NCBI GenBank assembly: GCA_965228855.1
Contig: CBDDIJ010000003.1
Span: 2,816,001 to 2,880,000, forward strand
DNA from: Candidatus Obscuribacterales bacterium
GTDB taxonomy: Bacteria > Cyanobacteriota > Vampirovibrionia > Obscuribacterales > Obscuribacteraceae
Reading direction: 5' to 3'
Length of the DNA stretch: 64,000 nucleotides
This document shows, one piece after another, positions 7,950 to 58,981 of this stretch. Below the pieces are notes generated by a model that did not search any database, was not told the origin of the DNA, and saw only the letters and a list, made by a program, of their open reading frames with translations. The first letter of the stretch is position 1. The number at the start of each line of letters is the position of its first letter. A program made the position numbers and the translations under genes.

Positions 7950-8025
7950 GGCACATTCCTCTTCGATCACCGATGAGTAAATTATACGGTGAACCGATCC
8001 AAATTTTGAGCTTAGCTATTTCGAT

Positions 8026-23600: not shown

Positions 23601-26600
23601 GGATCGGAATTAGAGAAACTCGATGAAGGCAAGATGCAGCGCCTGCATAAACTCGAGTCGCTGACGATATACAGGGAAGACATAACCGGATTGAAATCTT
23701 TCCTCGATGGAAGGGAAGCGGCACTGGAGTTGCGAGCAGCAGGTACGGCCGACAGACGAGAAGCATTGTTGAAACAATGGGAAAGTACCGCCGATGGTGC
23801 CGACAAACTTCAGGCGTTGGAACAATACAGAAGCGCCGTCTACGATCTAACGCAAAACAATGTCAGAAGAAGCATATTCGACGTTCTCGAAGACAACACC
23901 GGAAATCGTGATGCTGTCTTTAACGCGATCGAAAATATGTCAGCTTCAGAGCGACATGCCTATGCCACCAATGCTGAGGTAAAGATAACGGTCAACGGAG
24001 AGATCAAGACCGTCAAATTCAAAGACTATCTCGATTCTAAAATCCACGAGGAGTTCACCAGAACGACTGGACGCAATCAATCCAAGAGTACGAACCAGGA
24101 TGCGGTCAAGGCTGCAAAACATCTGCTCGATCAGATTGAACACAATCCTGACCACAAGCCAGAGAAAGATATCGTATTCGAGCTATTCGAGCTGGAAGCC
24201 CGACCTGGAACCACAAGAAAGGACACGATCGAAGCACTGCACAAAGCTTTCAACGGTCCTCATGCCGCAGAACTTCGAGCCCGCCTGGATAACTCGCCAG
24301 GCAACAGCAGCTACGATCCGAAATTTGCGGCGGCCTTCGAAGCAGCCGTCAAGTCATCCTTCCCAATGCCACATACAACTACCGGCGGTCGAGGCAAGGA
24401 TAGCAAACCTAAGTGGAATGCTGAATCTTGGAATGCTCATGTTCAAGAGAAGTACATAGATCCGGTCATCAAGAATGGTCACGTCTCCCTTGAGACGCTA
24501 AGAGAGCTTCACTCCTCTAACGGAGCTGCAGAGGCAATTCTGCAGCTCAACAAAGAATCGCTCGCTCATTTGAAAGCCACTGAAGGAGACAAACTAGAGC
24601 AGTTCTTGAGTGGAGTCTTCAGCGACGACCAACTCACTCTAGTACAAAAAGTACTCGAGCAAGGCGAGGTCCGGGTCGAAGACAAGCTATTCGCGCTGCA
24701 GGCAGGTGTCCTACCCAGAGAGCAACTGAGAGATGTTCTTTCCGAGATCAAATCGCAGACCCAGAGAATGGAAGTCGCCGACGGCTACGCGGAAAAATAT
24801 GGTGGCACAGCCATGCAGGCCATGCTCGACTTCGCACCTCCGAAAGACCAGGGAGCAGTTAGAGCGGCACTCCACTACAGAACGTGGACGAACTTAGATC
24901 ATCAGACCAATATAAGAGACCACATCAACACGGTAAACAACTGGGACAACTGGACCTATGACGGTTCAGACGAGCTCCTCGTCAATTCTGGTATCCAGGC
25001 AGGGGAGAGAATCCAGCAGGCTAACACGGCATATGAAACGTTATCGGAGGCAGAGTTTGCCAGATTAGAAAGCAATGTGTGGAAGGCGGGCGACGCGCAC
25101 ATTCGTTCGCAAGAAGAATTCGCAGAGATGGCTACGGATGGTGCCATCATGGCAGCGGCAGCAGCATTGACTGTATTTTCGGGAGGAACTCTCGGACCTG
25201 TAATGATCGCTTCGTTCACGCTCATGGCTGCAGCGGCCAAGATGGGCGGCAAGGCCATGCTGATGGGAGACAATTACGACGCCACCATGCAGCAGATCCG
25301 TCGAGATCTTGCGATGGGCGCAATCAATGGTTTCACCGCAGTCGTAGGGCCGGGAGAGCTTCTAGCCATGACCCGAATTGGGGGCGCGGCGGCTCAAACG
25401 GCAGCCACCAAAGTTATGACTCATGCGATGTTCGAAGGCATGGAAGCGACGACCAAAGCAGCTATCCAGAAAGAGTTGGCACTGGCTGTGCGAAAAGGTG
25501 TTCAACAGGGAATTCTCTCCGGGGTAGCAGGTCAAGCAGACAACAAGATCATCGAACAGGCATTGAAGAACCTGGTCACCAAAAAGCTTCTCACACCAGA
25601 AATGGCTCTCAAAGCAAGAGGTCTGATACAGACGGAACTAACCAATGCCATCATCAGCAATGGCAAGAGCTTCCTCATGAGAGAAGCCCTGGCTGGAGGA
25701 GCAGCACTGGTCAGTGGAGAAGTCGGCACTGTAGCGATGACCACAACGGACCTGTACTTCCAGGGAAAGCTGACTTTCGAAGGCTTCATGGACGGCTCCA
25801 ACTTCACCGAAGAGAACATGAAGATGTTCCGAGATGCGAGCATTCGCGGCATCGGTGGCGCCCTGACCGGTCACATGGCCGGTCGTGCAAGTGCGCTGGG
25901 AATGGGCGCCGGCAGAATTCAGAAACTGATGGGAGACCAAGCAGCAGGGCTCTACTCTCTCACCAAGGCTGGTGGCATCATGATGACCACCATGACAGCA
26001 ACCAACATATTGACCGAAAATGCCATTGCATCGCTCGACGGAAAAGTCTATGACGGTCAGGGCATGATGACCCAGACACTGATGGCAGGATGGGCCCCAT
26101 TCTTCCAGCAGATGCACGGGATGAAAGAGATGTTCTTGCCGGGACGAGGTCCGTCCTTCGCGCTCGGGTTTGCCCCCCGACAGGCATTCGGTGCTGGCGA
26201 ATCCGTCACCGGAAAACCCACGCACAACCACGCTGCAATCGAATACACGCAACCGAGGCTGCAGGATGCTGACTTCACGGGTCGCGCCGCGGTCATCGAG
26301 GATGGCAACGGGACAATAAAAGGTGGTGGTCTGGTAGAGCTGAAAGGCAAGAACACCAACATTGAAATCAATGCACCAAAAGACGGTGACCCGCTGGTCG
26401 TTGTAGTTGCCGATCCCGAAGCCGCGCGCAATCTCAAGATCCATCCGGACAGTGGTCCGGTGAAGATTGTGGTCCCCGAGGGGTTTGCACTTCCTCCCCA
26501 ATTCGCAGCGGAAGTTTCCAGACGCATGGGAGACAACAGCGCTGAGTACTTCAAACTAGGCGGCGACGGCTCTTTGAACCGTGTAGAAGATCTCGCCCAA

Positions 26601-29600
26601 CCTCTTATAGAAGCGATGGCAGCAAGGAATCCGGAGCTACCGCAGCAATGGAGCGCCAATCGAGATCTGAGTGCAAGTGAAGCACGACAGCTGCGAGAAC
26701 AATATGCTGAGTCTCTAGGTCCGCTCCTGGAACCGAAAATTGCAGAGCAATTCGTGGACACGATGGCGAAGGCTTTGGAAAGCAACGACCCTGCCCTTCG
26801 AAAAGTCGTAGCAGACTTCCAGAAAGCCGACATGGATTATCTGTCGGCGCGAGACGGTTTACTCATCAAAGTAGTCGGAAATGAAGTCAGCACCGATACA
26901 GACTTCTCCGAAGCGGGGTTGATGCGCTTAGCAGCAGGCGATCCTGAGAAGGTTGCTGCAGTTCAGGAATTTGTCAAAGCGAGAGAAGCGAGGGCTGAGG
27001 CTTCTCGTCCGCTAAAAGAGACGATGGATGCGCGCATGGAAGTTGTTCAACAAGCCATCAACGACTTCGCTGCCGAGCACGGAATTCCACCTATCAAGCT
27101 GCAGCGTTATGGAGAGGTTCAGGTAGGCAGCGCAGCTTACAGAGACGGGGAAATAAAGATAAGGAACGAGCATTTACTCGATCCCGCCAAGCTCGTGGAG
27201 GCGACCTTCCACGAACTCACTCACGCGAAGCAAGACAGCGATATACTGCGCTTGATTGCCGATGATCTGGGACTAACCGGCAAGCAGCTCGATGCCGCAG
27301 CCATAGACACGGTGATGGGCGAGTATGCCAAGCGCACCGGGCACGATGGTCCGAGCCCACGACCACCAGCGGCTGACGGTTCGACCAGTCCATCGGATCC
27401 GAGGCAGGTATGGCGGAGCTTCGTCGAGAATGCACTCTCTGAACACAGATCTCCGCTCGATGCCACCACGCGCACAAGAGCGCAAAAAATGGTGGAAGGC
27501 TTCGCAGCCGTAGCCAGAGATCAATCTCGCACGGACGCTCAGATCAACGGTGACTTCAGTGTAGTCAACTCGAAGATGAATCAACTTGATCTTCCTAACG
27601 GAGGTCAAAGACTGCTTGCCGCCCTGAAGAATGCTGACCAGACGTTACTACGACACCTGTTTAACGACGGACAATTGCCTGCCGAAGTTCGGCAGCTTGC
27701 CCAACAGCTCCCTGATGCTACGCGCCTCAACGATCCCTCGCTCGAGCAGAAAGCACAGGAGCTATTGCGCCCGCTGCTGAAGAAGAGAGCTATCGAGCTG
27801 AACGCGGAGAAAGAGCGCAGCTACAACAATTACGTCAGTGCCGCCCACGAGACGGAAGCTCTTCTTGCCGACCAGCTGACAAGATCGCTATCCAGGGCTC
27901 GCTTTAAAGACCAGGGACCAATGCGACTGGGCATGGGTATCGATGCACCGGATGTGGTTGCACGAGATGGCGCTCCTGCGGGCAGGGACTTGGCGCAGGC
28001 AACTGACACTGTCGATTCAGCTCGTAAGAGCTCCGACACAAGGAAAACCGAGATTCTCGGAATACTCAAGGTCGACGACCAGAAACAAGCGATTGAACGC
28101 CTGTTCAAGACACTAGACGATAGGTTAGCGTCAGGAGAAGTGGATCCTTCTACCGCCATCGAGCTACATGACTTGATGTCCAGGGGAGCCAAAGCCGGAC
28201 GGATTATGACGCCCGAAACTCTGGATATGCTCTCGAGGCTCACCAAAGATCAGGCTGGAGAAATTCTCAATTATAGACCTGCCGATCTGATAGAAGTCCT
28301 GAACACTGGTGAGGTGAAACCCGACACCCTAGCTGCACAACTTGCTGATGTCGACACATTCACAAGTACGATGGCGGACGTGAAACGAAACCTGGACATG
28401 GTAACAGCGTCGAAAGCAGAGCGGAACTATAGCCAGGCCGAGCGCGTTAACCGAATCGCTGACGAGCGGCAGAGACAAACACTCTCAGAGCTGTTCCGTT
28501 CTACCGAAATTTCCGAAGCCTGTTTCGAGAAAGTCCTCGACAGACTCTCAGGCAAATCATCTGGTGACCCCAAGTTCGATGCTGCCCTATCACCGGAAAC
28601 AGTGGCACGACTCGCAAGTAGCAATAGCCAAACCGATCACCTCATGCTCAGACATGCGGCATCTCTCACAGATGCCATCTCTAGAGGAGAGCTGCATCGT
28701 CCCCTGGAGACAGTTTCGAGCTTCCTGGAGACGAGCCCCCAGGCGGCAACCTACACCGCGCTACTGGTCAATTCGCCGAATCTCTCCGATGCTCAGGTGA
28801 CTGGACTTTTAAGAGATTTGGCTCATGCAGGTTCGAAAGAGGCGGCGAATACTCTTGTCGTCAGCCACTATGAGCTGAACAACAAGAATCCGAAACTGCA
28901 CCAGAAACTCCTTCAGATAACGGATGCAGATCTGCGGAACAAGCTTACCAATGCAACTGCGTTCGGTCACTTGAGCGAAACCCTTCTGGCAAGAATTACA
29001 GAAGCCCAAGCCAAGAACCCAGAAGTGGGGGGTCTCATAGTAGATCTACTTGCTGATCAGTCGAGAGATACCAACCGAGTCGGCGTGATCGAAAAGATGC
29101 TGGATAGAGGCATCGACGCCACCACCATTCGAAAAGTGAGAGCCGGACTCGCAGAGGGCACGGTCAACCTGAAGAGTGTCGAGGCTATCATATCTGCCGA
29201 CGGAGCTGGCCAAGAACTAGCTATGAGCCTGCTGAGCTCAGGCAAGATAACCGATGGGGCGCTTATCTCAAGAATAGCGAGCGACCGAGACGCTGTTTCG
29301 ATAGCGAGGATTATCGAAGCCGGAAACATTACCGAAGAGCAGTTCAAGAGCCTTCTCAATCTCAAGGGCGATCATGATTTGAGCTTAAGAGCGCTGCTTC
29401 GGGCCGAGGCCGCGTCCCCCGGCACGATGAAGGCTGGCGAGCTGGATACGCTGCTTTCTGATCCTCAGAAAGCTTTCGAACGCTCTCTTCAAGTAGCTCC
29501 GCAGCATCAGAAGAAACCTGCAACCGTTGTCGAACTACAACGCAAGTATCAAGCTCTGAGCAATGAGCTGGCAACGCATCTGGATGCAGATACAAGAGAC

Positions 29601-32600
29601 GCTCTCAACACGCTGGTAAAAGAGGGACTTGGAGAATCAGCACTCAAAGATAGAGATATGCAAGCCAGGTTGCGCCAGATCGAGAAACTTGCAGAAGCGA
29701 CCAAGACAAATCCGGACGCACCACCGAAGATTGTCGCAGAACTCATGGAGCGAGTTCTCGAAAAACGTATGCCATCACTGACGGTGCTGGCGGCGCAGAT
29801 AGATGCATTTATTGCGCGACCAGGCGGAGACCGAGCCCAACAAGGTCTTTCAGAGATACGTCAACACAATCTCGCAACAGCCTCAAACGGACAACCAGGT
29901 GAGATTCATCTGCTGGGAGTTCCCGGTTGGAAGGTTGCTCAACAAGATGGACAGCCGGTTATCGAGAACGGTAAGGTGGTGTTCGAGCATTCGGGAAGGA
30001 TAACAGTAGATCAATCCAAACTCGCTAAATTCGACACGGAAAACCTCTTCAGGCAAGTCTCGAGCGCAGACGGGAAAGTCACTCTAGAGCTTAGAAATCC
30101 AGTACGCGTCGCAATGCATCCGGAAGACGCGATTGTTTCTACTTTGGGCAACTACAACACAGGCCGGGCAAACTGCGTCAACTGCAACAGAGCACTCATG
30201 AAAGCCCTCGGCTCGAAAAACGGTGGGCTAGACCTTCTCATATCGGGCAAAGTACCACCGCCGGAACCACAACCTCCACATAATGTCACTTCGTTCAATT
30301 ACGAGGGAACTGGCGTAGATTCTCAAGGAAGCTACAGCACGCTGACCGTGGAAGACTTCGATAAGCTTCCGACAGGCATGTATAGGGCTCAGACAGTCGA
30401 TGCCTTCCAGGAAGGTGAAAGTCGACTCGAATTCCATACCTTCATGGTCGTGAAGCCCGAGGATGGACCTCCATACGTACTGGACGCGTCGAGCGGCGGT
30501 CGCTATCCCGTCGACCACTATGGCAGCAAGTTGAATCTCGAGCAGCTAAAGCAGAATGAAGTCAACATGCAGTCGAGAACACCGCATGGAGACCTGACGC
30601 CGGAAGCTACTCTACCTCGTAAGTCCGGCGATTTAGCTATGCGGGACGAACAAGGATATGTCCCAAGAGATGGAGATTCGCAAGAGCAAAAGACGAAGTC
30701 GAGACCACCTGGTTTTAATATCCCAGGTGACGATGAGCCAATTCTGAGACGAGAGAATCTAGAATATCTGGTCGATGACGGAGACGCTTACGAAGTCGCA
30801 GATTCTACTGTCAGAGTCGCTGATGGACGCCTACAAGCAACCGGCAAGTCGGAGATTCTTCTCGAAGGGGAGTCACGCGCTGTAGTCAGGGATGAATCGA
30901 GCGCGGTCGCAAAAGATAAGAGTGATGTGACTGCCTCTGGCAATTCCAAGGTGGTTCTCAATGACGAAGCGCAAGGAATTATCACAGGCGAATCTGTTGC
31001 CTATGCTCACGACAAGTCAGAAGCTACGGTATCAGGAAATGGAACAGTCATCGCTGATGGTGACTCAAAAGTTTCGGTATCGCGATTCGGTTTACCAGAG
31101 GACTATCCAACGGTGGAAGTCAGAGACAGAGCCTCCGTTGAGCTTCACCACAGAGCCAAAGTACATGGTGTTGGACAGGAAAGCTCGATAAATGTCGCAA
31201 GTGGAATTGAAAGCGTCGAATTGTTTCTCACCGATGGTCGAGCGGAAATCGGCAATGCTTCGGCAAGTATCGAAGGCAGCGGACAGGTCAAACTGACAGG
31301 TGATGCGGCAGTCGTGCTGAATGTACCGGAGAGACAAACTCTCAAAATAGTGGTAGATAGCGACCATCCGCACATATCTGTCCATCCCGACAGCAAAGGC
31401 ACAGTGGAGATAGTTCTCGCGCCGGGACGAAAACCGCCTGAGGGAATCACTCGAGCATCGGGAGTTCGTGTACTGGATTCGACCGGCAACGAAGTCAGTT
31501 TAAGAAAACATTCAGTCGACTCGACCCGCCCGGTCTTTGACGCGAATGCGCTGGATTCACTTCCGCCTATCGACCGAGCCAACAGACCGGTAATCGGTTT
31601 AGAAACAGATGAAGCAGTCTTACGGACTCTCGAAGGACTTCCCGAAGGCATAACGGAAAAACTTCTTGATGAACCGATCATGATAGTAAGAGCACTCGCA
31701 AACGCGGGAGAAAATAGTAATAGAATTCTCGCAGCGGAGTCGATAGAGCAGTCAGTATCAGCTCCTACACTGAGAGATCTCATAGAGCACCCGGAAAGGT
31801 ATCCCAAAGTCAACCTTGCAAATGCAGTACATGAGCTTGTTGGTCATAGAGCTTTCGATGACTTCCTGTCTAAATCGAATTTGACTGATCAAGAAAAAGC
31901 TGCTCTTGCGAAGATGCACGATGAATATGGTGATGCGAGAGAAAAGGCTCTCGGTCACCAAAATGATGCCCCTTATTTGAAAACACCTGAAGAGGTAGGA
32001 GCAGATCTCATTGCTGCCGAGTCAAGTCTGAGAGTAATCGACAGAAGGATAGAAGAACTCGCGAGACAGGGTGAGGCACCACCTCTGGAGCTACTGCGCC
32101 AGAGACAGCAGATGGAATCCTATAGAGAGCGCATGCTCCAACAGGTCGAAAGGAACCGACTAGACCGTCCGGACCATGCCTTCTTCTACGATAAACTTCA
32201 ACAGTTTATAGAACAGACCTATGAGAGCCGCGATCAAGCTTCTCCGGCTCGCCGTGGAGATAGCGAGACTCTGCGAGAAGATGGTAAGCATAGGTTCCGA
32301 GAAAGAGGAGCTGAAGAGCAAGTTCGTCCGATAGAGGGCGATCTTGAAGCAAGAGAAAGAGAAAAGCAGATTGTCGAAGATGACGATGATGGTGGCATTT
32401 CTTCGAACTACTCGAGATTCGCGGCCGTAGATGTCGAGGGAAATCCTGCGACGATTATCGATAGAACCGATGATGGCAAATTCATCGTAAACCGTCCGAA
32501 GCACGATGGAGACCCTTCACCTACCGGCTTCGAACCGCCTCGAGATCTATACTCAAATCTGCGCTACCGTGAGCTGAAAGTTGCGGAATTAGATGGAACC

Positions 32601-35600
32601 CTGTCTAAAGCTCGCTACTTCCGTGACACTGCCAGTGGTGAGTTCTTCAAGGTGGAGCAAGTTTATGGAGAGCAATACCTCCGGTTTCCGGCAGATGAGA
32701 TCGCAATAGTAGAAGCTAACAGTCTGCGACCGAGACTGGTTTCTGAATCAGTACGAATAAACACCAATCGCCTCAGAATGATTGAGGACATAGCAGACCA
32801 GGTTCCATTTCTACCAGAATTACCAAGACCTCGAATCGAAGAGCTGAGCGCAAGATTGCAACAGCAGGAGTCAGAGGTCGTTCAGACAAGAGGTCTGAAG
32901 CCTGAATTTTCGGGCTTCAGCTACGATGAAATGATCTCGGCATTCGAGAAATCTGGAATTACGAGCTATAGCGACTTCCTGAAAATGGGACTTTCCGATG
33001 AGGTCCCAGAAGCGATGAGCGTCTACACACTCAAGGGTCGCGAAGACTTGAAGATTTACGTATCTGAGTCTTTGAGTGCAGTACATGACAAAATTCGAGA
33101 GCTACGCGCAATCCAAGAGTCAGGCTCACCTGATGATAGCCTGAAAGCAAAATTCCTGCTCAAGCAACCGGAGTACAGGCGTCACGTTCTACCTGAAGAT
33201 CTCATCGCCGACTTCGCTACGTTGCCGGACGGAGGAGCCTCAATCAAGAAGCTTGTCATCTCCGGACAGCCCGACCCCGATAATGCCTGGTTGACCTACC
33301 AGCACAGAGACAAACAGGATCACTTCTTCGTGGCGCGAGCATCAGCCAACATCGACAGTGGAACGATCACGTTCTACGAAGGTTCCGGCGGCAGTCGCAA
33401 ACCGGTTGCCGATACATTGAGACATGAATGGGCCCACGTTCTCGAAGGCCAATCGCCCGAACAACGCAGAGCTCTGGACGCCGCTCTCCGGATAGAAGAG
33501 GAAAACGGCACTCCCTACAAGATGCGGGCGTATGCCAAGTACACCGAGAGTGAAGATTGGGCCGTGCATGTAGGCGAAGTAATGCTGGCCCAGGATTCCG
33601 ACCCATTCTTCGACATGGTCGCAAGCGCACATGGCACGGATTCGCGATACAAACTGCTGCTTATGGCGAATGCCATCGAAGAGTCTATGACTCAAGCCAA
33701 TCTCAAGGGCTTCGAGATGCACGGCGCAGAAGAGATGAAATCCAGACTCAAGTATCTGCGCGATCAGCTTGAACCGGGGGCGAAAGAGCGGCTCTTGGAG
33801 ATTCTTAAGGAGTCAAAGACTACACACATGTCGGCGAGCGATGCCGGCAATCTTCTGCGCGCACTCGCGAAAGAGGGTGATCTGGAAACATTGAAAGCGG
33901 CAGTCTTCGATGTAAAGACTGAAAATGGTCTGACCTCCATTTTCGACGCGATAACAGACATTACCGGGGAGAAAATACCGGAAGAAATACTCGGTCGGAT
34001 GATCGAGAATCGCAGTCCAGCGATGACGGGTGCTCTCCGAAGGATTCTTCTATCAGACGATTACCCACAACTCAAACCATCTGTGCTCGAAGAATTCTAT
34101 AACGGTGCAATACCGCGGGCGGTGGCAGAAGCGAATTCTCCTGGAGCGGACTACATTTTCCACAACTTCATCCTCGACCAGGAAAAACAAGGAAAGGGGA
34201 TAGAAGCGTTGAGAGCCGTGGCAAACGGTCTGGAAGGTCACCCTGAAATGCGTGGAGAGTTCCTTGCAGCCATCGTCTTCGATGAAACCGATGCCCTGGC
34301 AAAAGCAGCGCTGAATATACTCGAGGAATTGCCACCGCTTATTTCGTCCGAGCCACATGTAAGGATCACTCTGGAATCCGAATACCACGAATTCGCGAAA
34401 GACCCTGAAGCTCAAGCTCAGATGCGCAGAATTCTAGATAGAATCGAAGCACTACCCGAATTCAAATCGCGTCAGACCGAGGGAGACTCACCGACGAAAT
34501 CTTCGGATCTCGCAATGCGAGGAGACGATGACTCCGCGGAGCGGCTGCGCCCCGTCGAAGGCGACAAGGTAAAGTGGACACCGACCGAACGAGCACAAGA
34601 TACTGCTCGCTGGGCTAAACAATTCGTCGATAGATTCAATAGCGGAGACTATCAAGAGGCGTATCGGTATCTGCTCGACCATGATGCATATCCATCTACC
34701 ATTGAGGTCAGACTCAAAGACTTCCAGATAAAAGCATCCGAACTGCTTGCGGTATCTACGGACGGTCAATTCAGCGAATCGCTCAGGGATTTCATGCGTG
34801 AAAGTGGACAAGCCGCGAGCTTCAGACCTCAGGGATTCATCAGAGACCACAAAGCCTGGGACTGGGATACCTACTTCATCGATAACCCCAGGACGGTGGT
34901 TGAGCTGAGCAGTGGCACGAAGATTGACTTGATGCATCCTGACACTACTCTCGATGCCAAGCCGCTTACCAGTGAGGCGGACCGAATAGAAATCAGAACA
35001 ATTCTCGAAAGCCCTGCAGCGAAAGAGTTGATGGCGCGACACGCGGTCATTCTCGCCGAAGAAATGGCCCACGTCCGTCAGACTGACAACAATTTGTTCG
35101 TAGTGTCCGAGACCTATTCCCGGATGATGGAAGCCGCGTCAGACCCAGAAAACGCTCTGCGGCTCGAGGTCTTCGACATGCCGGTAAACCGAGATAACTG
35201 GGGCTACAGAGACTTTTTCTCCTTCGAAGAGGAGATTCCCGCCATCTTCGCTGATGCTGGCATGTCGATAGAGCACCTCCGCAAGTACTACAGCAATTAC
35301 GATCACAGAGGACCGCTGCTCGACTTTATCGAACAAACACAAAAATCACAAAGGGATGGTTCTGGTTCTAACGATCTCGCTATGAGGGGTGATCGACCGG
35401 AAGCAAATGATCCGACGAATCGCCGATCCAAACTGACCGAAGAAGATGCTTCCAGAATCAATGACGAAGTCGTATCTGCCCTGATATATGAGCGACAGGC
35501 TGTTGAACAAGACATGTGGGATGAGCTCTACAAAGCTCGCGGCAACAAGCTATCGCCCAAAATGGAGCGAGGAAGACAACAGGCTATAGAGCTATTAGGA

Positions 35601-37271
35601 CCTGTTGTGGAAGAGACCGCGAGGAAGTTGGGTCTGCCACCGGATTTGGTGACACCAGACATGCTGACTATATCGCTAAGGGATGATCATACCGGCACCT
35701 TCGGAACCGACGGAAAAATAGAAGTAAGCATCTTCGCCAATGATCCAGTTTTCGTGATCGAGCATGAACTCAGACATTTCAAAGAAGCTCTCGCGCGAAC
35801 TGCTCTGAAGGAATCGAACCCTGAGCTGTTCACGCAAATAATCCAGGAGCAAGTCATCGACGCAGTCGGCAACGGCGGTCGGCGAGCCATAGGAGAAGAC
35901 GCAAGACCCAGACCCCAGATCGCAGATCCAGAAGCGCGGCAGACGATGAAGGACCTGGTGCGCGCAGTCCTCTCTGACAACTCTCTAAAAGGAGCTCGAG
36001 ACATACAGCGGTGGCTTAAAGGCCGCGATATTCCCGACGCCCTGATCAAGGAATTAGGCTCGATGAGGACGATCGCGACAGAGTTGGAACTCGAGAAAAC
36101 TCACTTTAGCAGAGCTATGGAAGAAGCCACTCTTGAGATGGAATCAGACTCGCTCAGCGACAAAACCAGGGCATATATCGATAGACTGGCAGCAGAGACA
36201 CAACCACACTCTAAGGAGTACGCCAGACACCTTCTCAAAGGCGTAGCAGCAGACGCAGCGGGAATACTAAACGATACCGGACACTACAGAATGTCCAGAG
36301 AGGAGATTAGAGCCCGACGCTTCGAGATCTCACGAGACTTATCTCGGAAGCTGGATGAAACGATTGGAAACGATGATGCAGGGCTTTTAGCCGCACTCAA
36401 GTTAGAAGGTTTGCAAGAAAGATTGCTCGACCAGTTGGAAAGGGCGGATGCAGGAGGCGACAATGCACCTGAAGCGCAAGAGAGAGCGCGGGAGTTAGCT
36501 GTCGAACTGCTTGGTAGTCTTCCCGTAGATGTCGATGGTAAGCGTCTCAGCAAGGACGCGATCATAGAGATGCTTGACAAAGGGCGTCTCTCCGAAGCGG
36601 ATTTCGTTGGAGAGGTCCCACTGTCAGGAGTAGTCAGCGTTCCAACTACGAGCGTAGATACGCTCAAGTTCATTCTAGATAGAGGTCTCATAGACTTCAG
36701 CGAACTCGATGGTACTTTATTCGAAAGTATAACCCCGATGCTCAAGAAGGAGCGTCGAGAAATTATGCAGACCGAGCTGGAGCAGCGAAACTGGCGCACA
36801 AAAGTAGACGCATCTGCCGAGACGGAAGCGGCAATTCTCGACGGAAAAATAGACCCTGCCCTCACCGGCGGTGGCGTTCCGCAACCTGATGGCTCGACGA
36901 AATATGCACTAGCGCAGAGCGCAGAAATACTGATCGCTACAGATCAGGTGGCGACAGTCAAATCTGTTTCACTCAAGGATGGAGAGTGGCGGTTCGACAC
37001 TGAGACACCAGACGGTCGCAAATTGAGTGAGCCAGTAGCAGATGTTGCCTACCCATTCCAGCATATTCTCGAGCGGATCGGTCCCAGCGATCCCAAGGCA
37101 GTTGCAGACATCCTGGCATTTCATGCCGCTACCCTTGAAAAACTGAGCGAAAAGAACATTCCGGCACTCGGAATAGAATCCGATGGAACAGGCAAACTAC
37201 GATTCAGGGACCGCGCTTCGAGAGACTCAGCCGCAGAGACAGCGCCAGAACCAACACCTGCAAGAAGCTGA
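11646..37271 (+). CDS. Giant (about 8500 aa) multidomain protein, putative multi-effector polymorphic/MARTX-like toxin
   Basis: Uninterrupted 25.6-kb ORF. HEAT-like repeats, YD/Asp-box beta repeats, hydrophobic Gly/Ala-rich segment, HELTH, NCVNC..H..D, HELVGH, HEWAH, EEMAH, HELRH, repeated DLAMR linkers. True start uncertain (possibly TTG at 11706). Confidence is for the CDS; the toxin role is inferred. Confidence 0.9.
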   Translation: MYMFTMGTTNSATLCWLSKTLSENRKQPIDQTSDNDNEDDSSVDEALSASAERDHEPASSTTSDKSDRATDASEDTQESQQETQEDALDSTNESSEGGDVISDGLREEQKANLAEAKQLLETHGLKLRKEDVPDIAIENGHGFTRKSHQHEQLGKVSRTTLDDGTLETAFERHPDFRALSFKPGEAPTAKLRQDLADFPETRAALEVGEPTTFKPGAPSNSKELEGFFQKHPEYKSLTLTRGHNASADLPPTAELDRGFTGPAIMGGTDANGQKWLLLANGAAEKFIQGSEKGEQSIVLFHPEDPEGRMAQVRYQDHAETFYSNGRKVKSSDYKSTGEEAAPVVSDTRAPAGQVAPGGGGEGVVATPLATPVVTESDTTQKETIPPADGQTQLPELEKVSAEIPEEVAVEVQPEIGKPVISDGADTQRPDSDSNENYSSGAEGSDSNGTFITERFQGPEDTGSAFDNSVAERNKFQQEQQRLIEQEKEKFLDLHASGEERQEAIAALETLLTSQSDESRTAMQKTIDFYKTADAVLSLGKATAGHRFETVRTQLLSPSTSDSAIVAISNIANGSNGDQQETARAREMLMDFAKRNPATADKVIDALLASRTEGDKFGSLTLATEIAAETGRSTTTLKTALYDGLKSESASEKNSAFLNMVRLSGSWSKEDAQAVASSLTPGEAREILAVAPDTISAHRDAMAPILAEKLGREWSESDAGRVAALLSEDVIQAIDRASPSAIDRVADHIHNNLVANRTPADLEAGAKQALERLSALKTQDSPDEREVEVLAAAVQRYTDAVADQARGRVNDPTKAKAANEALERLGLQSDTGREFVIDSIVAHQPPRSKQFDTLGTLGKLIAASDNVPSKSRELYASVLADGNPIQQRAAIDSMKLFADKWTSEDAEILRDNLSFEAIHRLVLTKPNVMDKQIGDTTLRKFLVEGLKEKVSSPDAKTRETAVTALGVVGGKHALKDAGLEVSSYSTDGDSNRYRLYDPKGTYYRFQEFKDRDGVLLEQIYRGNEAELFVDWKRGPGGSVELSAVRDTVRKPPFGAQFGYDGNYDFSYEGGYKNGIRSLNEKEAEAFKAQYDELRHNGDFYTLGQNDGFHELPAPVEDFSPPAADTAGDITAPERGIDTKAEEAVEILDKLKQMAIGPPPNTQAQDQLISIGGVTGPQNRDRLLARNIEAVDGLIAQLKRQDSPSRFAAMRRLESALKPSEGQESVAEQLQDARIEQLMNGVGPESSAEELVRLQTRLVEQLELARESNDQKTAVKLHDKMLWVGTAHAIAQLNELDPASTDTPARSRELVNKLFVEAQKGNKHAQTAMALLARDGQSDTQEKIQALASGDGQVGLATPDLKNLSPDQRLAISKIATNLIQRKVRATGGDITEAEVLAVTSAYNEANVRGDSDTARSMLDTLDLALSRDVKESGEGRTDRQITVEAISELLKTSIGNDQQLRDRYLTFADSAQLNNDLPALRERSATGDEAAMYLMAGIASSDKGDASSTASGELLDLAQNESLRELAMKAAIDAKNAETGDRGDATDLFRAMAEQGTVPESVKTLLHWKLGSSDPSDRTQGARALVSIADRWTEQDVAQIKDNMSQELAQAAAELPDGVDEKHVASIREGLATTLKNESSEASAKEVAVQALANLEGEALLLDATKQEALGLKAEKDGDKTTLIDSNGTRYKFSRTGDGSVRLDRLERSDKSYRENKYNENGDFIGAEEVTESGGKLKIDGDNRGVEVRKPNGEFIKIQSGTDGKPSGVVDSNGNGWFSKDGGTSWTRRGTGEKAFGEPLLSPDGSLRFHSGEHQLDVLQKTDGTIESVDHKRHETTAIGPDGFSITRNDAGKVVRTRDADGNENLYSWSRDNKTLLGVMDKTGMWKSDDGIRWNHLGAPGETTTGTRSVDESGRYHVFENGPQGRKETITGLDGSKTVNRPDGSSEIYNRRGEKFTVRHEGSPSHLAEVDDPSGLKWKSADGKTFTLMDGDEPSDVTATIELQPDGTLKRTISKESRESAAERGLAVDVVSKPDGISISRDSQGRITEMTGVGGEKSTITYDESDPQKIKRLKTVHPDGRVEEIQQTSDGKWRQLFKDSVTSAPHDATREHIQADRITFDQSTGELTFLSNGASKVEVSRDVTGHRYNLPWTSQTTEAQKHNYDKLVRTLDRGIRGYRDVGESLRLEDTWSGDGSRESVQWSTTGDVSSERTVHNLDGSVAKIDALGRVTGVSGLANDASIDIKYGDNGEVTLRDSSGQLWESKDGRVFHNPETNVTLRCELFVGKDGKFGFDLNGGARMTRDVSSRETIFSPPEMFRQPRLSPPEAQVAGVVLKDSGERLELDGNGLVIATQTNNGRRIIATRDGAGNLTSAKVMVGDQVARTYTNTNGQWSLDGTPMRKGAQASLDRNGDFFVFEDDIDRKPDFVQRLDGTRIEKSESFDIPNGSKYVVESPSGEISEFHFRRGGAEPVLIMEGGRVQQDGTIQFPTKIIKLPNSNNTYSVIKSDRDGAQPAGKTWTGEIRFDAYTGSTYSSGKYPDSSAKTEVRTSDGWTFDPASSDKTQRKLEPNGALLFRKPTGELYEASRPDGVHLSAERNSIGMVDTVTFRNDLAKTSEQYKTSDGKHWTRTVTDGTGKAVTDEFEGSVSVSRDGDVTIRKADGSLERRLASGADIKFDATTGEATVDRPSEVKVGDQSYGKTLHIGGFGANGQPNKIFNGDGTYSATSDGVSWRKYDGQGSPIGEPFKQTVEFNLETGNLKVTKMDGSNPPRPVRVESINGDGTHRILENVGLGDQLDLRVTSESNEYGEVITHKYEGGAKKGTHVENKDGTYKDFIVYKSQGREQMLLSGFKDSYGRQTEINWITQNGRPTVASYTDEYGDKWQLYNDNKYRRQTDKGPPGPKVHGGKVFVNREGQLEMMMKTSSNLTALDGDNTTVNVRIARGIEGHIITQFQEHGGITVKGRENVVERTIRADGAVHQFSYSREKGLIKLDRYGQPNINQITEGDSNSSEKWDLIYLKYGHNQEKQEWKPMRWKSSANGKEMDAFWRLDQLTGDMSWFNSNMSHQHYSLAGGWDKLHGGEHLRKEADEIANVFEKWWISNYAFSSASRYSDLKSHLEPLTGDQMQMMQYYLHNHEGKPDLRQKVDELWSGWEHDTLEGHLDRTAHTRDTDEAERADVRIRSALAEMSTYSQRIQTSQTRALEKEVRDSLGALNQTQLELLQIAHNGGNKDAPTLLQEIQEHPRWKNAPEIHQKALKLYLEKGKDERTPKEEAELMALALQYTAPGVGRNRHMQYAPASLTQRLEYFREFSAADRSSDEARTYFREEMGGAALLEQAFVREYQRTGNPEDPNSYNYQNGFFKVADWDPNRLMTIGRDYMLDGKMRATTIIEEGNYLFGASRASIEDTFAQMTPDDRARLRRGLEMHMIINDKIEVPAAEKAAVQALLDPSNTSAEAKKARDDYEYFTDLNTKAHDWSTFGRDRRQTEYVSLASGAGFSHDMGEATVSTMWWNADKETHMSQVENMDRESFDLFMSDRALRALNTDFMKENFSGYTRGDAALKLFNDKLAYADSLEKMSVDDLARLLPGTLELSKPELDIFMRTRALDRTIAEGATIQRSINKGRELERGITDGAEIARKIEAGSLSEAGLGDADKIALDLFKAHRDGKLTDAQKQALEALHVDNGRTLSQRLAKGKEVADRVETDPSGESGLSDADRTLLQLFRSSEKGELDAQNKSDLELFQAKKSDAKESALKEFRDHQQTLKLVDELHEGRDLARDINEGRLLAEAIQSGKAVSGRLGGLSGQTRTDAIAALSAADRVSLRTFERFEAGKMTESERMQIELHKAQQNGSLGAHRQGLLTQFERWQRTTGEKLAAEFDQGKAVNERLLKRNPADRHKARTELSPEDRHALDTFNSLESARKLQADINSGRELSLSLESGASSAQLTDQQKYQLALFDQYKAGNLSQSQTEALGKIQSIDAFRDGSELEKLDEGKMQRLHKLESLTIYREDITGLKSFLDGREAALELRAAGTADRREALLKQWESTADGADKLQALEQYRSAVYDLTQNNVRRSIFDVLEDNTGNRDAVFNAIENMSASERHAYATNAEVKITVNGEIKTVKFKDYLDSKIHEEFTRTTGRNQSKSTNQDAVKAAKHLLDQIEHNPDHKPEKDIVFELFELEARPGTTRKDTIEALHKAFNGPHAAELRARLDNSPGNSSYDPKFAAAFEAAVKSSFPMPHTTTGGRGKDSKPKWNAESWNAHVQEKYIDPVIKNGHVSLETLRELHSSNGAAEAILQLNKESLAHLKATEGDKLEQFLSGVFSDDQLTLVQKVLEQGEVRVEDKLFALQAGVLPREQLRDVLSEIKSQTQRMEVADGYAEKYGGTAMQAMLDFAPPKDQGAVRAALHYRTWTNLDHQTNIRDHINTVNNWDNWTYDGSDELLVNSGIQAGERIQQANTAYETLSEAEFARLESNVWKAGDAHIRSQEEFAEMATDGAIMAAAAALTVFSGGTLGPVMIASFTLMAAAAKMGGKAMLMGDNYDATMQQIRRDLAMGAINGFTAVVGPGELLAMTRIGGAAAQTAATKVMTHAMFEGMEATTKAAIQKELALAVRKGVQQGILSGVAGQADNKIIEQALKNLVTKKLLTPEMALKARGLIQTELTNAIISNGKSFLMREALAGGAALVSGEVGTVAMTTTDLYFQGKLTFEGFMDGSNFTEENMKMFRDASIRGIGGALTGHMAGRASALGMGAGRIQKLMGDQAAGLYSLTKAGGIMMTTMTATNILTENAIASLDGKVYDGQGMMTQTLMAGWAPFFQQMHGMKEMFLPGRGPSFALGFAPRQAFGAGESVTGKPTHNHAAIEYTQPRLQDADFTGRAAVIEDGNGTIKGGGLVELKGKNTNIEINAPKDGDPLVVVVADPEAARNLKIHPDSGPVKIVVPEGFALPPQFAAEVSRRMGDNSAEYFKLGGDGSLNRVEDLAQPLIEAMAARNPELPQQWSANRDLSASEARQLREQYAESLGPLLEPKIAEQFVDTMAKALESNDPALRKVVADFQKADMDYLSARDGLLIKVVGNEVSTDTDFSEAGLMRLAAGDPEKVAAVQEFVKAREARAEASRPLKETMDARMEVVQQAINDFAAEHGIPPIKLQRYGEVQVGSAAYRDGEIKIRNEHLLDPAKLVEATFHELTHAKQDSDILRLIADDLGLTGKQLDAAAIDTVMGEYAKRTGHDGPSPRPPAADGSTSPSDPRQVWRSFVENALSEHRSPLDATTRTRAQKMVEGFAAVARDQSRTDAQINGDFSVVNSKMNQLDLPNGGQRLLAALKNADQTLLRHLFNDGQLPAEVRQLAQQLPDATRLNDPSLEQKAQELLRPLLKKRAIELNAEKERSYNNYVSAAHETEALLADQLTRSLSRARFKDQGPMRLGMGIDAPDVVARDGAPAGRDLAQATDTVDSARKSSDTRKTEILGILKVDDQKQAIERLFKTLDDRLASGEVDPSTAIELHDLMSRGAKAGRIMTPETLDMLSRLTKDQAGEILNYRPADLIEVLNTGEVKPDTLAAQLADVDTFTSTMADVKRNLDMVTASKAERNYSQAERVNRIADERQRQTLSELFRSTEISEACFEKVLDRLSGKSSGDPKFDAALSPETVARLASSNSQTDHLMLRHAASLTDAISRGELHRPLETVSSFLETSPQAATYTALLVNSPNLSDAQVTGLLRDLAHAGSKEAANTLVVSHYELNNKNPKLHQKLLQITDADLRNKLTNATAFGHLSETLLARITEAQAKNPEVGGLIVDLLADQSRDTNRVGVIEKMLDRGIDATTIRKVRAGLAEGTVNLKSVEAIISADGAGQELAMSLLSSGKITDGALISRIASDRDAVSIARIIEAGNITEEQFKSLLNLKGDHDLSLRALLRAEAASPGTMKAGELDTLLSDPQKAFERSLQVAPQHQKKPATVVELQRKYQALSNELATHLDADTRDALNTLVKEGLGESALKDRDMQARLRQIEKLAEATKTNPDAPPKIVAELMERVLEKRMPSLTVLAAQIDAFIARPGGDRAQQGLSEIRQHNLATASNGQPGEIHLLGVPGWKVAQQDGQPVIENGKVVFEHSGRITVDQSKLAKFDTENLFRQVSSADGKVTLELRNPVRVAMHPEDAIVSTLGNYNTGRANCVNCNRALMKALGSKNGGLDLLISGKVPPPEPQPPHNVTSFNYEGTGVDSQGSYSTLTVEDFDKLPTGMYRAQTVDAFQEGESRLEFHTFMVVKPEDGPPYVLDASSGGRYPVDHYGSKLNLEQLKQNEVNMQSRTPHGDLTPEATLPRKSGDLAMRDEQGYVPRDGDSQEQKTKSRPPGFNIPGDDEPILRRENLEYLVDDGDAYEVADSTVRVADGRLQATGKSEILLEGESRAVVRDESSAVAKDKSDVTASGNSKVVLNDEAQGIITGESVAYAHDKSEATVSGNGTVIADGDSKVSVSRFGLPEDYPTVEVRDRASVELHHRAKVHGVGQESSINVASGIESVELFLTDGRAEIGNASASIEGSGQVKLTGDAAVVLNVPERQTLKIVVDSDHPHISVHPDSKGTVEIVLAPGRKPPEGITRASGVRVLDSTGNEVSLRKHSVDSTRPVFDANALDSLPPIDRANRPVIGLETDEAVLRTLEGLPEGITEKLLDEPIMIVRALANAGENSNRILAAESIEQSVSAPTLRDLIEHPERYPKVNLANAVHELVGHRAFDDFLSKSNLTDQEKAALAKMHDEYGDAREKALGHQNDAPYLKTPEEVGADLIAAESSLRVIDRRIEELARQGEAPPLELLRQRQQMESYRERMLQQVERNRLDRPDHAFFYDKLQQFIEQTYESRDQASPARRGDSETLREDGKHRFRERGAEEQVRPIEGDLEAREREKQIVEDDDDGGISSNYSRFAAVDVEGNPATIIDRTDDGKFIVNRPKHDGDPSPTGFEPPRDLYSNLRYRELKVAELDGTLSKARYFRDTASGEFFKVEQVYGEQYLRFPADEIAIVEANSLRPRLVSESVRINTNRLRMIEDIADQVPFLPELPRPRIEELSARLQQQESEVVQTRGLKPEFSGFSYDEMISAFEKSGITSYSDFLKMGLSDEVPEAMSVYTLKGREDLKIYVSESLSAVHDKIRELRAIQESGSPDDSLKAKFLLKQPEYRRHVLPEDLIADFATLPDGGASIKKLVISGQPDPDNAWLTYQHRDKQDHFFVARASANIDSGTITFYEGSGGSRKPVADTLRHEWAHVLEGQSPEQRRALDAALRIEEENGTPYKMRAYAKYTESEDWAVHVGEVMLAQDSDPFFDMVASAHGTDSRYKLLLMANAIEESMTQANLKGFEMHGAEEMKSRLKYLRDQLEPGAKERLLEILKESKTTHMSASDAGNLLRALAKEGDLETLKAAVFDVKTENGLTSIFDAITDITGEKIPEEILGRMIENRSPAMTGALRRILLSDDYPQLKPSVLEEFYNGAIPRAVAEANSPGADYIFHNFILDQEKQGKGIEALRAVANGLEGHPEMRGEFLAAIVFDETDALAKAALNILEELPPLISSEPHVRITLESEYHEFAKDPEAQAQMRRILDRIEALPEFKSRQTEGDSPTKSSDLAMRGDDDSAERLRPVEGDKVKWTPTERAQDTARWAKQFVDRFNSGDYQEAYRYLLDHDAYPSTIEVRLKDFQIKASELLAVSTDGQFSESLRDFMRESGQAASFRPQGFIRDHKAWDWDTYFIDNPRTVVELSSGTKIDLMHPDTTLDAKPLTSEADRIEIRTILESPAAKELMARHAVILAEEMAHVRQTDNNLFVVSETYSRMMEAASDPENALRLEVFDMPVNRDNWGYRDFFSFEEEIPAIFADAGMSIEHLRKYYSNYDHRGPLLDFIEQTQKSQRDGSGSNDLAMRGDRPEANDPTNRRSKLTEEDASRINDEVVSALIYERQAVEQDMWDELYKARGNKLSPKMERGRQQAIELLGPVVEETARKLGLPPDLVTPDMLTISLRDDHTGTFGTDGKIEVSIFANDPVFVIEHELRHFKEALARTALKESNPELFTQIIQEQVIDAVGNGGRRAIGEDARPRPQIADPEARQTMKDLVRAVLSDNSLKGARDIQRWLKGRDIPDALIKELGSMRTIATELELEKTHFSRAMEEATLEMESDSLSDKTRAYIDRLAAETQPHSKEYARHLLKGVAADAAGILNDTGHYRMSREEIRARRFEISRDLSRKLDETIGNDDAGLLAALKLEGLQERLLDQLERADAGGDNAPEAQERARELAVELLGSLPVDVDGKRLSKDAIIEMLDKGRLSEADFVGEVPLSGVVSVPTTSVDTLKFILDRGLIDFSELDGTLFESITPMLKKERREIMQTELEQRNWRTKVDASAETEAAILDGKIDPALTGGGVPQPDGSTKYALAQSAEILIATDQVATVKSVSLKDGEWRFDTETPDGRKLSEPVADVAYPFQHILERIGPSDPKAVADILAFHAATLEKLSEKNIPALGIESDGTGKLRFRDRASRDSAAETAPEPTPARS

Positions 37272-46033: not shown

Positions 46034-46744
46034 ATGCGCGAGGTTCAAGTCGCTAAACTCGAGTCCGTTCATGGCACGCAGCAGTCGCCCATTAACATCA
46101 CGGCGCGCGAGGCGTTCTCTGTTGCAGACCAAATTTCAGGAACCGGCTACGACCAGAACTCATTCAAAGGACACGTAGTTGAGAACGCAGAGCACCACTA
46201 CTTCGAACTTTCCGAACGCAATAACAAGAAGTTGCCATCAGTTGAATTTCGCTCGACGCGCGCTGTCTTGAAGAGCATCCACTTCCACGCGCCCAGTGAG
46301 CACCAACTCGAAGGCAACGAATACGACGCGGAATTTCACTTCGTGCACGACATCGTTTCGAAAGAGGTCACGGGAAACGCACACGTCCAGGAGCCGTCAA
46401 CAAAACTGGTGATCGGCGTCTTCGCCAACGCCGTCAAGAGCGCGGAAGAAATCGCATCATTTTGCAACTCGCTCAAAGTGCTCAAAGAAACCGGCAAACC
46501 ATGCCCGAAGGAATGCGAGTTTCCCGCAAAAATTCTCAACGACATTCCATCAAAATTTGGAAGCTTCTTCCATTATCGTGGCTCACTCACCAGCGGCGAG
46601 CATCTCGAAATTGTTTCCTGGATCGTTTTGAAAGAGGCGATCGGAGTTTCGTCAGATCTCTTGGAAGAAATTGAGTCGCTCGACCAACCAACGCGCGAAC
46701 TGCAATTATTGAACCGCAGAATCCTTTTGGTAAGCGGGACGTAG
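46034..46744 (+). CDS. Alpha-class carbonic anhydrase-like protein, copy 1
   Basis: QQSPINI, HFHAPSEH, EFHFVH, YRGSLT, VSWIV, RELQLLNRR. Confidence 0.88.
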   Translation: MREVQVAKLESVHGTQQSPINITAREAFSVADQISGTGYDQNSFKGHVVENAEHHYFELSERNNKKLPSVEFRSTRAVLKSIHFHAPSEHQLEGNEYDAEFHFVHDIVSKEVTGNAHVQEPSTKLVIGVFANAVKSAEEIASFCNSLKVLKETGKPCPKECEFPAKILNDIPSKFGSFFHYRGSLTSGEHLEIVSWIVLKEAIGVSSDLLEEIESLDQPTRELQLLNRRILLVSGT

Positions 46745-53099: not shown

Positions 53100-53891
53100 G
53101 GGTGACGTGAGTTTCGTTTCGTTTCGCATGGCGTATAATGCGAAATCGTTTCCACCTCTCTGGAGATATGAAGTATGCGCGAGGTTCAAGTCGCTAAACT
53201 CGAGTCCGTTCATGGCACGCAACAGTCGCCCATTAACATCACGGCGCGCGAGGCGTTCTCTGTTGCAGACCAAATTTCAGGAACCGGCTACGACCAGAAC
53301 TCATTCAAAGGACACGTAGTTGAGAACGCCGAGCACCACTACTTCGAGCTGTCCGAACGCGATAACAAGAAATTGCCATCAGTTGAATTTCGCTCGACGC
53401 GCGCTGTCTTGAAGAGCATCCACTTCCACGCGCCCAGTGAGCACCAACTCGAAGGCAACGAATACGACGCGGAATTTCACTTCGTGCACGACATCGTTTC
53501 GAAAGAGGTCACGGGAAACGCACACGTCCAGGAGCCGTCAACGAAACTGGTAATCGGCGTCTTCGCCAACGCGGTCAAGAGCGCGGAAGAAATCGCATCA
53601 TTCTGCAACTCGCTCAAAGTGCTCAAAGAAACCGGCAAACCATGCCCGAAGGAATGCGAGTTTCCCGCAAAAATTCTCAACGACATTCCATCAAAATTTG
53701 GAAGCTTCTTCCATTATCGTGGCTCACTCACGAGCGGCGAGCATCTCGAAATTGTTTCCTGGATCGTTTTGAAAGAGGCGATCGGAGTTTCGTCAGATCT
53801 CTTGGAAGAAATTGAGTCGCTCGACCAACCAACGCGCGAACTGCAATTATTGAATCGCAGAATCCTTTTAGTCAGCGGGACGTAGACCTAA
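53100..53891 (+). repeat. Direct repeat A, copy 2
   Basis: Matches 45964-46750. Confidence 0.95.
53175..53885 (+). CDS. Alpha-class carbonic anhydrase-like protein, copy 2
   Basis: Same protein as copy 1 except ERNNK versus ERDNK. Confidence 0.88.
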   Translation: MREVQVAKLESVHGTQQSPINITAREAFSVADQISGTGYDQNSFKGHVVENAEHHYFELSERDNKKLPSVEFRSTRAVLKSIHFHAPSEHQLEGNEYDAEFHFVHDIVSKEVTGNAHVQEPSTKLVIGVFANAVKSAEEIASFCNSLKVLKETGKPCPKECEFPAKILNDIPSKFGSFFHYRGSLTSGEHLEIVSWIVLKEAIGVSSDLLEEIESLDQPTRELQLLNRRILLVSGT

Positions 53892-58879: not shown

Positions 58880-58981
58880 CACTCCTCCAAGAAAGTGCAG
58901 TTTGACCGAAACGAATATTCTAAGCCTGGCGATTGGGTCAAGGACTCAAGAAAGTCAGCCAGCATTTGGGTTCTCAATTGC

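Follow-up and report, generated by a model that had tools for sequence, protein, structure and literature searches.

The window described here is a stretch of 64,000 nucleotides (positions 2,816,001 to 2,880,000 of contig CBDDIJ010000003.1, forward strand, GenBank assembly GCA_965228855.1) from a member of Candidatus Obscuribacterales, uncultured, non-photosynthetic kin of the cyanobacteria. The host genome, G000, comprises 8.2 Mb on 6 contigs. The plus strand carries an open reading frame (ORF) of 8541 amino acids, P0001, at 11646-37271. A short linear motif recurs within its C-terminal quarter, three times as DLAMR and twice in what is read as a diverged form, GK.RFR. It is conserved in several genera. 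Its copies occupy disordered linkers that border on modules, and they follow a membrane block and a module with an HExxH sequence. From the N-terminus onwards P0001 consists of a polar N-terminus with helical repeats, RHS/YD-like repeats, a helical region, the membrane block, module M1, a papain-like module and modules M2 to M5. This order was derived from the sequence and from comparison with relatives, which have the architecture in common. The features are given below by position in the window, with residues of P0001 in parentheses.

11646-37271, plus strand: giant ORF P0001 (8541 amino acids), weak RHS_repeat match, architecture common to relatives.
25113-26195, plus strand: membrane-like block (about 4490-4850, bounds approximate), hydrophobic, rich in Gly, Ala and Met, with transmembrane-like windows.
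26283-29714, plus strand: module M1 (4880-6023), first module past the membrane block, HELTHAKQD at 27210-27236.
29946-30620, plus strand: papain-like (Tox-PL1-like) module (6101-6325), NC..H..D residues, ending about 4 residues before the first DLAMR copy.
30570-30740, plus strand: linker L1 (6309-6365), first DLAMR copy at 30630-30644, VPRDGD at 30660-30677.
30741-32207, plus strand: cargo module M2 (6366-6854), with a beta-rich part homologous to modules of P0002 and G002, HELVGH at residue 6729.
32208-32390, plus strand: linker L2 (6855-6915), GKHRFR at 32283-32300, RPIEGD at 32325-32342, one RRGDS.
32391-34445, plus strand: cargo module M3 (6916-7600), HEWAH at 33423-33437.
34446-34568, plus strand: linker L3 (7601-7641), second DLAMR copy at 34506-34520, RPVEGD at 34548-34565, predicted local distance difference test (pLDDT) below 50.
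34569-35330, plus strand: cargo module M4 (7642-7895), invariant EExxH..Q, placed by alignment with stand-alone homologues.
35331-35468, plus strand: linker L4 (7896-7941), third DLAMR copy at 35373-35387, RPEAND at 35394-35411.
35469-37175, plus strand: cargo module M5 (7942-8510), HELRH at 35763-35777, AlphaFold2 mean pLDDT 81.
37176-37268, plus strand: C-terminal polar tail L5 (8511-8541), GKLRFR at 37191-37208, with no module after it.

All five copies reported in the first-pass annotation of this DNA were recovered within P0001. DLAMR starts at residues 6329, 7621 and 7910 (nucleotides 30630, 34506 and 35373) and GK.RFR at residues 6880 and 8516 (32283 and 37191); RP.EGD accompanies them at residues 6894 and 7635 (32325 and 34548). 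The DLAMR copies read GAT TTA GCT ATG CGG, GAT CTC GCA ATG CGA and GAT CTC GCT ATG AGG, as had been quoted, with different codons for Leu, Ala and Arg, and the DNA flanks of the five sites do not align to one another. The six-frame translation of the genome (16,436,090 residues) contains 16 occurrences of DLAMR, three of them in P0001, within 1,600 residues, where about 0.007 were expected. The background for GK.RFR and RP[IV]EGD, and for the wide pattern used below, was the genome's other ORFs of at least 100 amino acids (4,515,902 residues). GK.RFR occurs twice in P0001 (0.0038 expected per 8541 residues; 2 in the background), as does RP[IV]EGD (0.0019 expected; 1 in the background). Since the counts far exceed chance, the DNA flanks are unalignable and the synonymous codons differ, the recurrence is real, non-random and held at the protein level.

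An internal translation start at the conserved ATG was considered and rejected: none of the three copies in G000 has a purine-rich run of the ribosome-binding type ahead of the ATG, and Leu and Ala are preserved although their codons differ. Mimicry of the ubiquitin/NEDD8 tail (LAMRGG) was also rejected; GG follows in 2 copies only, and the Trp variants of relatives cannot fit. Three of the six RGD triplets of P0001 lie in cargo linkers, at 32253-32261 (RRGDS), 34518-34526 (MRGDD) and 35385-35393 (MRGDR), and the orthologue in genome G007 has a fourth (TRGDS). The total of 6 RGD triplets in P0001 is not a significant enrichment over shuffled sequences (3.3, P=0.10).

The motifs had been described as lying in polar stretches between catalytic modules. 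The polar setting is confirmed: over the 20 residues that flank each DLAMR copy on each side (n=3), the hydrophobic fraction is 0.05-0.20, and all five motifs, both GK.RFR copies included, fall within segments of low hydrophobicity. The catalytic part of that description was not confirmed, the HExxH and HExxxH motifs being its sole basis; Pfam, PDB-sequence and fold searches gave no significant match. Pfam scans of the whole ORF (E up to 0.1) and of ten C-terminal modules taken singly returned sub-threshold noise only. RHS_repeat stayed below the cut-off in P0001 (E 0.049, 14.5 bits against 22) and exceeded it in the relatives G002 and G001 (37.1, 36.8 and 33.5 bits). The membrane block is 35% identical to its counterpart in G006 and is matched by two paralogues in G000. 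M1 is colinear in G005, G006 and G045. The best lead for M1 in the protein atlas is a weak one, PF18838 (LPD23, a large polyvalent protein-associated domain; score 0.92, 144 shared features).

AlphaFold2 modeling of residues 7585-7960, with an alignment of 13 homologues, gave a confident domain at 7642-7906. The pLDDT is below 50 over residues 7604-7641, which hold the second DLAMR copy and RPVEGD, and over 7907-7930, which hold the third DLAMR copy. Stand-alone homologues of M4 (P0035, P0037, P0030 and P0028, 229-263 amino acids) span the domain from its first to its last helix, starting after the one motif and ending before the other. Both copies are thus outside the predicted folded domain. 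Together with the linker location and the recurrence at homologous junctions described below, the ends of the stand-alone M4 proteins bear out the first-pass claim that the motifs mark module boundaries. The M4 family itself (about 250 amino acids, invariant S..A....EE..H..Q) occurs both in these small proteins and embedded in giants. The M4 model had no fold match in PDB (best Foldseek E 0.1, best VIA Z 4.1), by which a new fold is not yet shown.

The orthologue in G007, 97% identical, retains all five motifs. All 40 motif residues are identical in G000 and G007, whereas 15 of the 196 remaining linker residues and 106 of 3505 residues outside the linkers differ; this is a trend only (Fisher P=0.08). 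The junction before M4 has homologues in P0003, which is 46% identical over M4, and in G045, a genome of another genus that is 61% identical in the scaffold; they read GALAMRGSDDD..RPVEND and GALAMRGGDED..RPVEGA, respectively. A second copy, GALPMRG[SN]DD, lies further along in both. Contig C444 of G045 is colinear with G000 through M1, after which it carries a different small module, RRRRGDLAMRGGDDD and an M3 homologue (48% identity). The motif thus persists at the protein level in the orthologue and in more distant relatives, as the annotation had it, and its presence at the junctions of homologues was found before M4 in P0003 and G045 and before M3 in G045; two junctions that lack it are taken up below. 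The place occupied by GKHRFR in G000, ahead of M3, is taken by DLAMRGGDDD in G045. Mainly for this reason GK.RFR (G-K-[HL]-R-F-R) is read as a diverged form of G-D-L-A-M-R, and the two would be copies of one signal, G-x-[LH]-x-[MF]-R.

RPxEGD is taken as a separate linker element of more local character. Before M4 it is kept as RPVEND in P0003, as RPVEGA in G045 and, even where the main motif is missing, as NPVKGD in G002b, which ties that copy to the approach to M4. The remaining RPxEGD-like copies of G000 (VPRDGD, RPIEGD and RPEAND) stand 2-9 residues after the main motif, with no counterpart before the M3 homologue of G045. G005, G006 and G012 have Pro-[GA]-D directly after the motif.

Homologues of the cargo region were sought at several levels. 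A protein search with residues 6250-8541 matched only P0002 (5828 amino acids) among proteins of 4697-14947 amino acids, and residues 7560-7959 gave no match, near in length or longer. Residues 7560-8541 gave 41 matches at E <=0.001 among 1.84 billion representative proteins. Nineteen of 41 related genomes had a match, several giants of 6,000-9,300 amino acids among them. M3 is the most widespread cargo module among relatives, and the M5 family is found in many proteins of 2000-4000 amino acids. A profile scan of metagenome contigs with the homologue alignment found no relative. Near-identical DNA occurs in biofilter, biofilm and activated-sludge samples; the read-matched metagenome contigs represent a G007-like strain and add nothing independent. 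Public metagenome contigs of a closely related strain are missing the single bases 33823, 33825 and 33827, a net in-frame loss of one M3 codon. M3 is also where the giant gene of G002 (C93, L029) is split. There a frame of 9257 amino acids ends inside M3 and one of 1078 amino acids, overlapping it by about 98 bases (about 5944-6041), continues the module; residues 9046-9233 align to G000 6918-7105 and the next frame starts at 7107, which indicates a frameshift or an assembly error. At the end of the cargo array of G005 (C73, L031; residues 8440-8900 of 8958) lie domains of PP2C phosphatase, FHA and HEAT type (43.8, 30.4 and 29.1 bits); no other cargo module of the set passed the Pfam cut-off.

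Comparison across the giants suggests a broader motif, G-[DE]-[LFM]-A-M-[WFR], of which DLAMR is the form seen in this lineage. In G005 and G006, which belong to the same genus, [DE]LAM[WF]R[KR] stands at the ends of Pro-rich polar linkers. A pattern-blind scan, in which residues were reduced to a ten-letter alphabet and over-represented 5-mers were ranked, gave D-F-A-M-[WF] and [DE]-[LM]-A-M-[WF] as the two highest-ranking 5-mers in G042 and DFAMW as the highest in G102. The regular expression [DENQA][LMF][AGP]M[WFR], with 81 matches in the background, occurs 18 times in G042 (0.19 expected; 10,834 residues examined of an 18,420-residue ORF) and 5 times in G102 (0.11 expected; 6,137 of 13,497 residues). 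Counts elsewhere are 3 in each of G000, G007, G006 and G045, 2 in G005 and P0003, and 1 in G066. It is absent from P0002, G002, G001, three other giants of G000 and two scaffold paralogues of G000, and among the 41 proteins of the M4 and M5 families (P0003-P0043) it occurs only in P0003 (2) and P0034 (1, chance-like). Copies number about one per module, and a single protein has as many as 18. They lie C-terminal to the membrane block and M1, and the part of the protein N-terminal to the block is free of copies in G000, G007 and G006.

The tally by position covers 37 copies, leaves out G007 and includes some orthologous copies shared by G005 and G006 and by P0003 and G045. It runs Asp 24, Glu 6, Ala 4; Leu 20, Phe 12, Met 5; Ala 34, Pro 2, Gly 1; Met 37; and Trp 25, Arg 8, Phe 4, often followed by Gly or Ala, Arg or Lys, and Asp. 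Ala-Met is the most invariant pair, and Gly precedes the motif in 27 of the 37 copies, though it lies outside the regular expression. Among 11 copies in G042 there is no repeat at the DNA level, and the Gly, Asp, Leu and Ala codons vary between copies. A DNA pattern search for [DE]LAM[WF]R in the 101 family genomes was discarded, since matches were about as frequent as in a reversed control and the inspected loci outside G005 and G006 were short frames. The related genomes hold open frames of 18,420 (G042:C1; L086-L088, L112), 17,447 (G055:C138; L119-L120) and 13,497 amino acids (G102:C209; L089-L090, L109). Those of G042 and G102 share the scaffold of membrane block plus HExxH module, and the cargo array of G042 alone exceeds 10,800 amino acids.

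The motif was also compared with the distribution of the scaffold. Residues 4440-5300, covering the membrane block and the start of M1, matched 66 of the 101 family genomes at E <=1e-8. Downstream of this region the motif is present in all eight ORFs of relatives with at least 33% identity to M1 (G007, G045:C444, G006, G005, G042:C1, G102, G066:C221 and G066:C119). It was found in none of four ORFs of 27-31% identity (G063, G077, G042:C11 and G066:C6; 2166, 2743, 1008 and 2211 residues examined) and in none of three that match the membrane block only (G103, G098 and G055:C138; 1065, 1108 and 9519 residues examined). This co-occurrence of motif and scaffold is suggestive, the genomes being kin and not independent samples.

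The giant gene is chromosomal. Upstream of it lie a gene for a phage-type integrase (8026-9054) and a Uma2 gene; no other mobile-element genes were seen. Downstream come a gene for a patatin-like lipase, read from the opposite strand, and ORFs that have no annotation. The general annotation, in which immunity genes were not searched for specifically, revealed no immunity family there. Two ORFs of 236 amino acids in this neighbourhood, at 46034-46744 and 53175-53885, encode carbonic anhydrases of the eukaryotic type; they lie about 7 kb apart, have near-identical Pfam scores and are probably a recent segmental duplication. The island in which they lie, downstream of the integrase, also holds Fic, two patatin-like lipases and the VHL-beta-domain protein (57977-58882).

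Several known systems resemble P0001 in part. Processing of MARTX and large clostridial toxins is performed by an inositol-hexakisphosphate-activated cysteine protease domain, Peptidase C80. The cuts are described at small-Leu-small sites in unstructured segments between effectors (PMC2900308). Like these secreted toxins, P0001 is giant and would combine a membrane-translocating part with a string of effectors, and the copies of G000 and P0003 (D-L-A, A-L-A) resemble their consensus. The likeness to MARTX autoprocessing drawn in the first-pass annotation does not extend to membership. No match to Peptidase_C80 (PF11713) over the cut-off was found in P0001 or in the whole genome (best E 0.595, outside P0001, on another contig and with internal stops), and no RTX or HemolysinCabind family was found in P0001 (Pfam, E up to 0.1). 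The Leu position is Phe in 12 and Met in 5 of the 37 copies, with Pro after Leu in 2, the motif, G-D-x-A-M-W/R, exceeds the toxin consensus in length, and the cargo stands at the C-terminal end instead of centrally.

For polymorphic toxins, pre-toxin motifs are described as proposed processing sites, together with in-built releasing peptidases; Tox-PL1 (NC, H, D) and HExxH peptidases are listed as toxins or releasers (PMC3482391, Zhang et al. 2012). The papain-like module of P0001 carries the N-C, H and D residues listed for Tox-PL1 in that paper. As with VENN of CdiA and the end of the RHS core, a short conserved element stands here at the border of a constant delivery part and variable modules, and RHS-like repeats are weakly matched, below the Pfam cut-off in P0001. 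In the P0001 family module content and order vary among relatives around the conserved border motif, the pattern by which polymorphic toxins are recognised, with the toxicity of the modules putative. In contrast to these toxins, the marker is repeated before successive modules (5 copies here, 18 in G042) instead of standing once before a single C-terminal toxin, and no known trafficking domain or array of immunity genes was recognised by Pfam or neighbour annotation, where immunity was not searched for specifically. To our knowledge, the motif sequence itself is unlike known pre-toxin motifs.

Polyvalent proteins carry one to five interspersed zincin-like HExxH (also HExxxH) domains, with predicted autoproteolytic release of the others (PMC5512222, Iyer et al. 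2017). P0001 likewise joins many unrelated modules in one polypeptide with HExxH and HExxxH sequences interspersed, and the weak atlas lead of M1 is LPD23. Polyvalent proteins are packaged or transferred with DNA and are without an RHS-like region or membrane block, whereas the present gene is chromosomal with an integrase gene adjoining; the available portion of PMC5512222 defines no cleavage motif. Giants of Omnitrophota exceed 10,000 amino acids and are suspected of being cut into pieces, with information on the cleavage points lacking (10.1101/2023.11.21.568195, West-Roberts et al. 2023 preprint). They belong to another phylum and, as far as the available text of the preprint goes, have other domains (C39 and S8 peptidases); the names Obscuribacter, Melainabacteria and Vampirovibrio have 0 occurrences in it. 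No account of the present proteins was found in literature on Obscuribacterales or Obscuribacter and giants or toxins, judged largely by titles. The motif, its repetition before many modules and its scaffold were not found in the literature searched, so far as its text was available; the logic of a marker or processing site is itself already known.

Because of the analogy with MARTX and clostridial toxins, polymorphic toxins and polyvalent proteins, the motif is tentatively proposed to be a recognition and cleavage signal that releases the cargo modules, at somewhat short of an even chance. After export the membrane block would insert and the cargo array would be passed across; a protease would then cut at the motif and the modules would be freed. 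The first candidate for this protease is the scaffold's own HExxHxxQD module M1, or else the interspersed HExxH modules; M1 as the enzyme is held to be about half as probable as the proposal as a whole. Alternatively, a separate bacterial or target-cell enzyme may cut. The HExxHxxQ[DQ] sequence of M1 is intact in 10 of 10 homologues, and HExxH modules are frequent in all cargo arrays examined, P0001 having three HExxH and one HExxxH. The sequence HExxHxxQ brought PF13699 (eCIS_core/DUF4157) to mind for M1, a family without a match in the ORF. The genome has eleven Peptidase_C14 genes, all lying outside the giant gene and not adjacent to it, and the neighbours of the G042 giant include no protease family. 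The papain-like module (GRANCVNCN ... EFHTFMVV ... VLDASSG) was undetected by Pfam and lies in the protein atlas near clusters of PF15644 ('papain fold toxin 1, glutamine deamidase', Gln_amidase; 0.92, 178 shared features), a lead only, and near SpvD clusters. Among 41 genomes it occurs in G000 and G007, with weak matches in G021 and G020.

A number of observations weigh against cleavage. The absence of Peptidase_C80 and the kinship of the genomes have been mentioned. The papain-like module, considered as a common protease, was not found in G005, G006 or other motif-bearing genomes; so confined, it is ruled out as a partner that all motif copies could share. G063 and G077, in which the motif was not seen, also have an intact HExxH in M1. 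Self-cleaving cassettes of one HExxH module per motif were rejected, as the counts do not pair one-to-one. The M5 model gave anthrax lethal factor as the best Foldseek match (E 0.25) and SPRTN in VIA (Z 5.3), neither significant, and profile searches of the HExxH modules against PDB sequences gave no match. The regular expression was widened after inspection of the data; of six ORF pieces taken after it had been fixed, only one, the sole strong M1 match, was positive in this small prospective test. The motif is absent from some homologous junctions, namely before M4 in G002b and before M5 on contig C54 of G045. It would be unusual for one specificity pocket to accept Trp, Phe and Arg alike, the three residues that occur after Met. 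A simple cut between Leu and Ala is disfavoured because Leu is followed by Pro in two copies (ALPMR) and replaced by Phe or Met in others.

The same residues lend themselves to a docking signal. A hydrophobic patch (Leu/Phe-Ala-Met-Trp/Arg) within an acidic flexible linker would then be bound by an export chaperone, by the translocating membrane block, by an adjacent module or by a protein of the target cell; the array would be kept unfolded, ordered or tethered, and the protein would stay uncut. Disorder, conservation and recurrence fit docking equally, Trp, Phe or Arg at +4 and Pro at +2 in two copies suit a binding patch better than a single protease pocket, and no protease could be tied to the motif. 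Docking is nevertheless considered somewhat unlikely: no binding partner can be named, one copy lies 26 residues from the C-terminus with nothing after it, modules can coexist without the motif, as linkers that lack it at homologous junctions show, and the printed precedents for multi-effector giants point to processing. The terminal copy also bears on whether the peptide is a functionless remnant of cassette accretion, as the first-pass annotation had allowed, in which modules would have been gained or exchanged through recombination at a linker sequence they shared. A stub linker with a motif that ends the protein would suit such a history, as would the integrase gene upstream and the changing company of the modules: M3 follows M2 in G000 but M1 and a different small module in G045, and the module preceding M4 in G000 differs from that in P0003 and G045. 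The copies, on the other hand, have no DNA similarity, and their amino acids are fixed while synonymous codons differ; the motif is unchanged between G000 and G007 while its linker neighbours change, and it is kept across genera at 33-61% scaffold identity. A neutral remnant should decay first at the protein level, which makes a relic quite improbable. Since the motif persists while its linker neighbours change and recurs at the junctions of relatives, a working signal is favoured over a decaying relic. In G005 and G006 the polar stretch closes with the motif and more hydrophobic sequence follows at once, which could alternatively mean that the motif is an N-terminal structural cap, part of the fold of the following module. 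This is very improbable given that the modules after the motif are mutually unrelated, that stand-alone M4 homologues are without it, that AlphaFold2 leaves it unstructured and that one copy has no following module.

If the motif is a cleavage signal as proposed, the giants could be true polyproteins, in which the scaffold's HExxH protease would read G-D-L/F/M-A-M-W/R and chop a chain of 8,000-18,000 residues into up to about 18 effectors after delivery. Code and scaffold would then co-evolve, with Arg here and Trp or Phe elsewhere. This full version is considered unlikely. Whether giant proteins of bacteria act as one chain or as cut pieces is an open question; the candidate site described here is precise, recurring and conserved across the clade, and the question thereby becomes directly testable. 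The motif also provides a practical rule for splitting unannotated proteins of 8,000-18,000 residues into modules for structure prediction.

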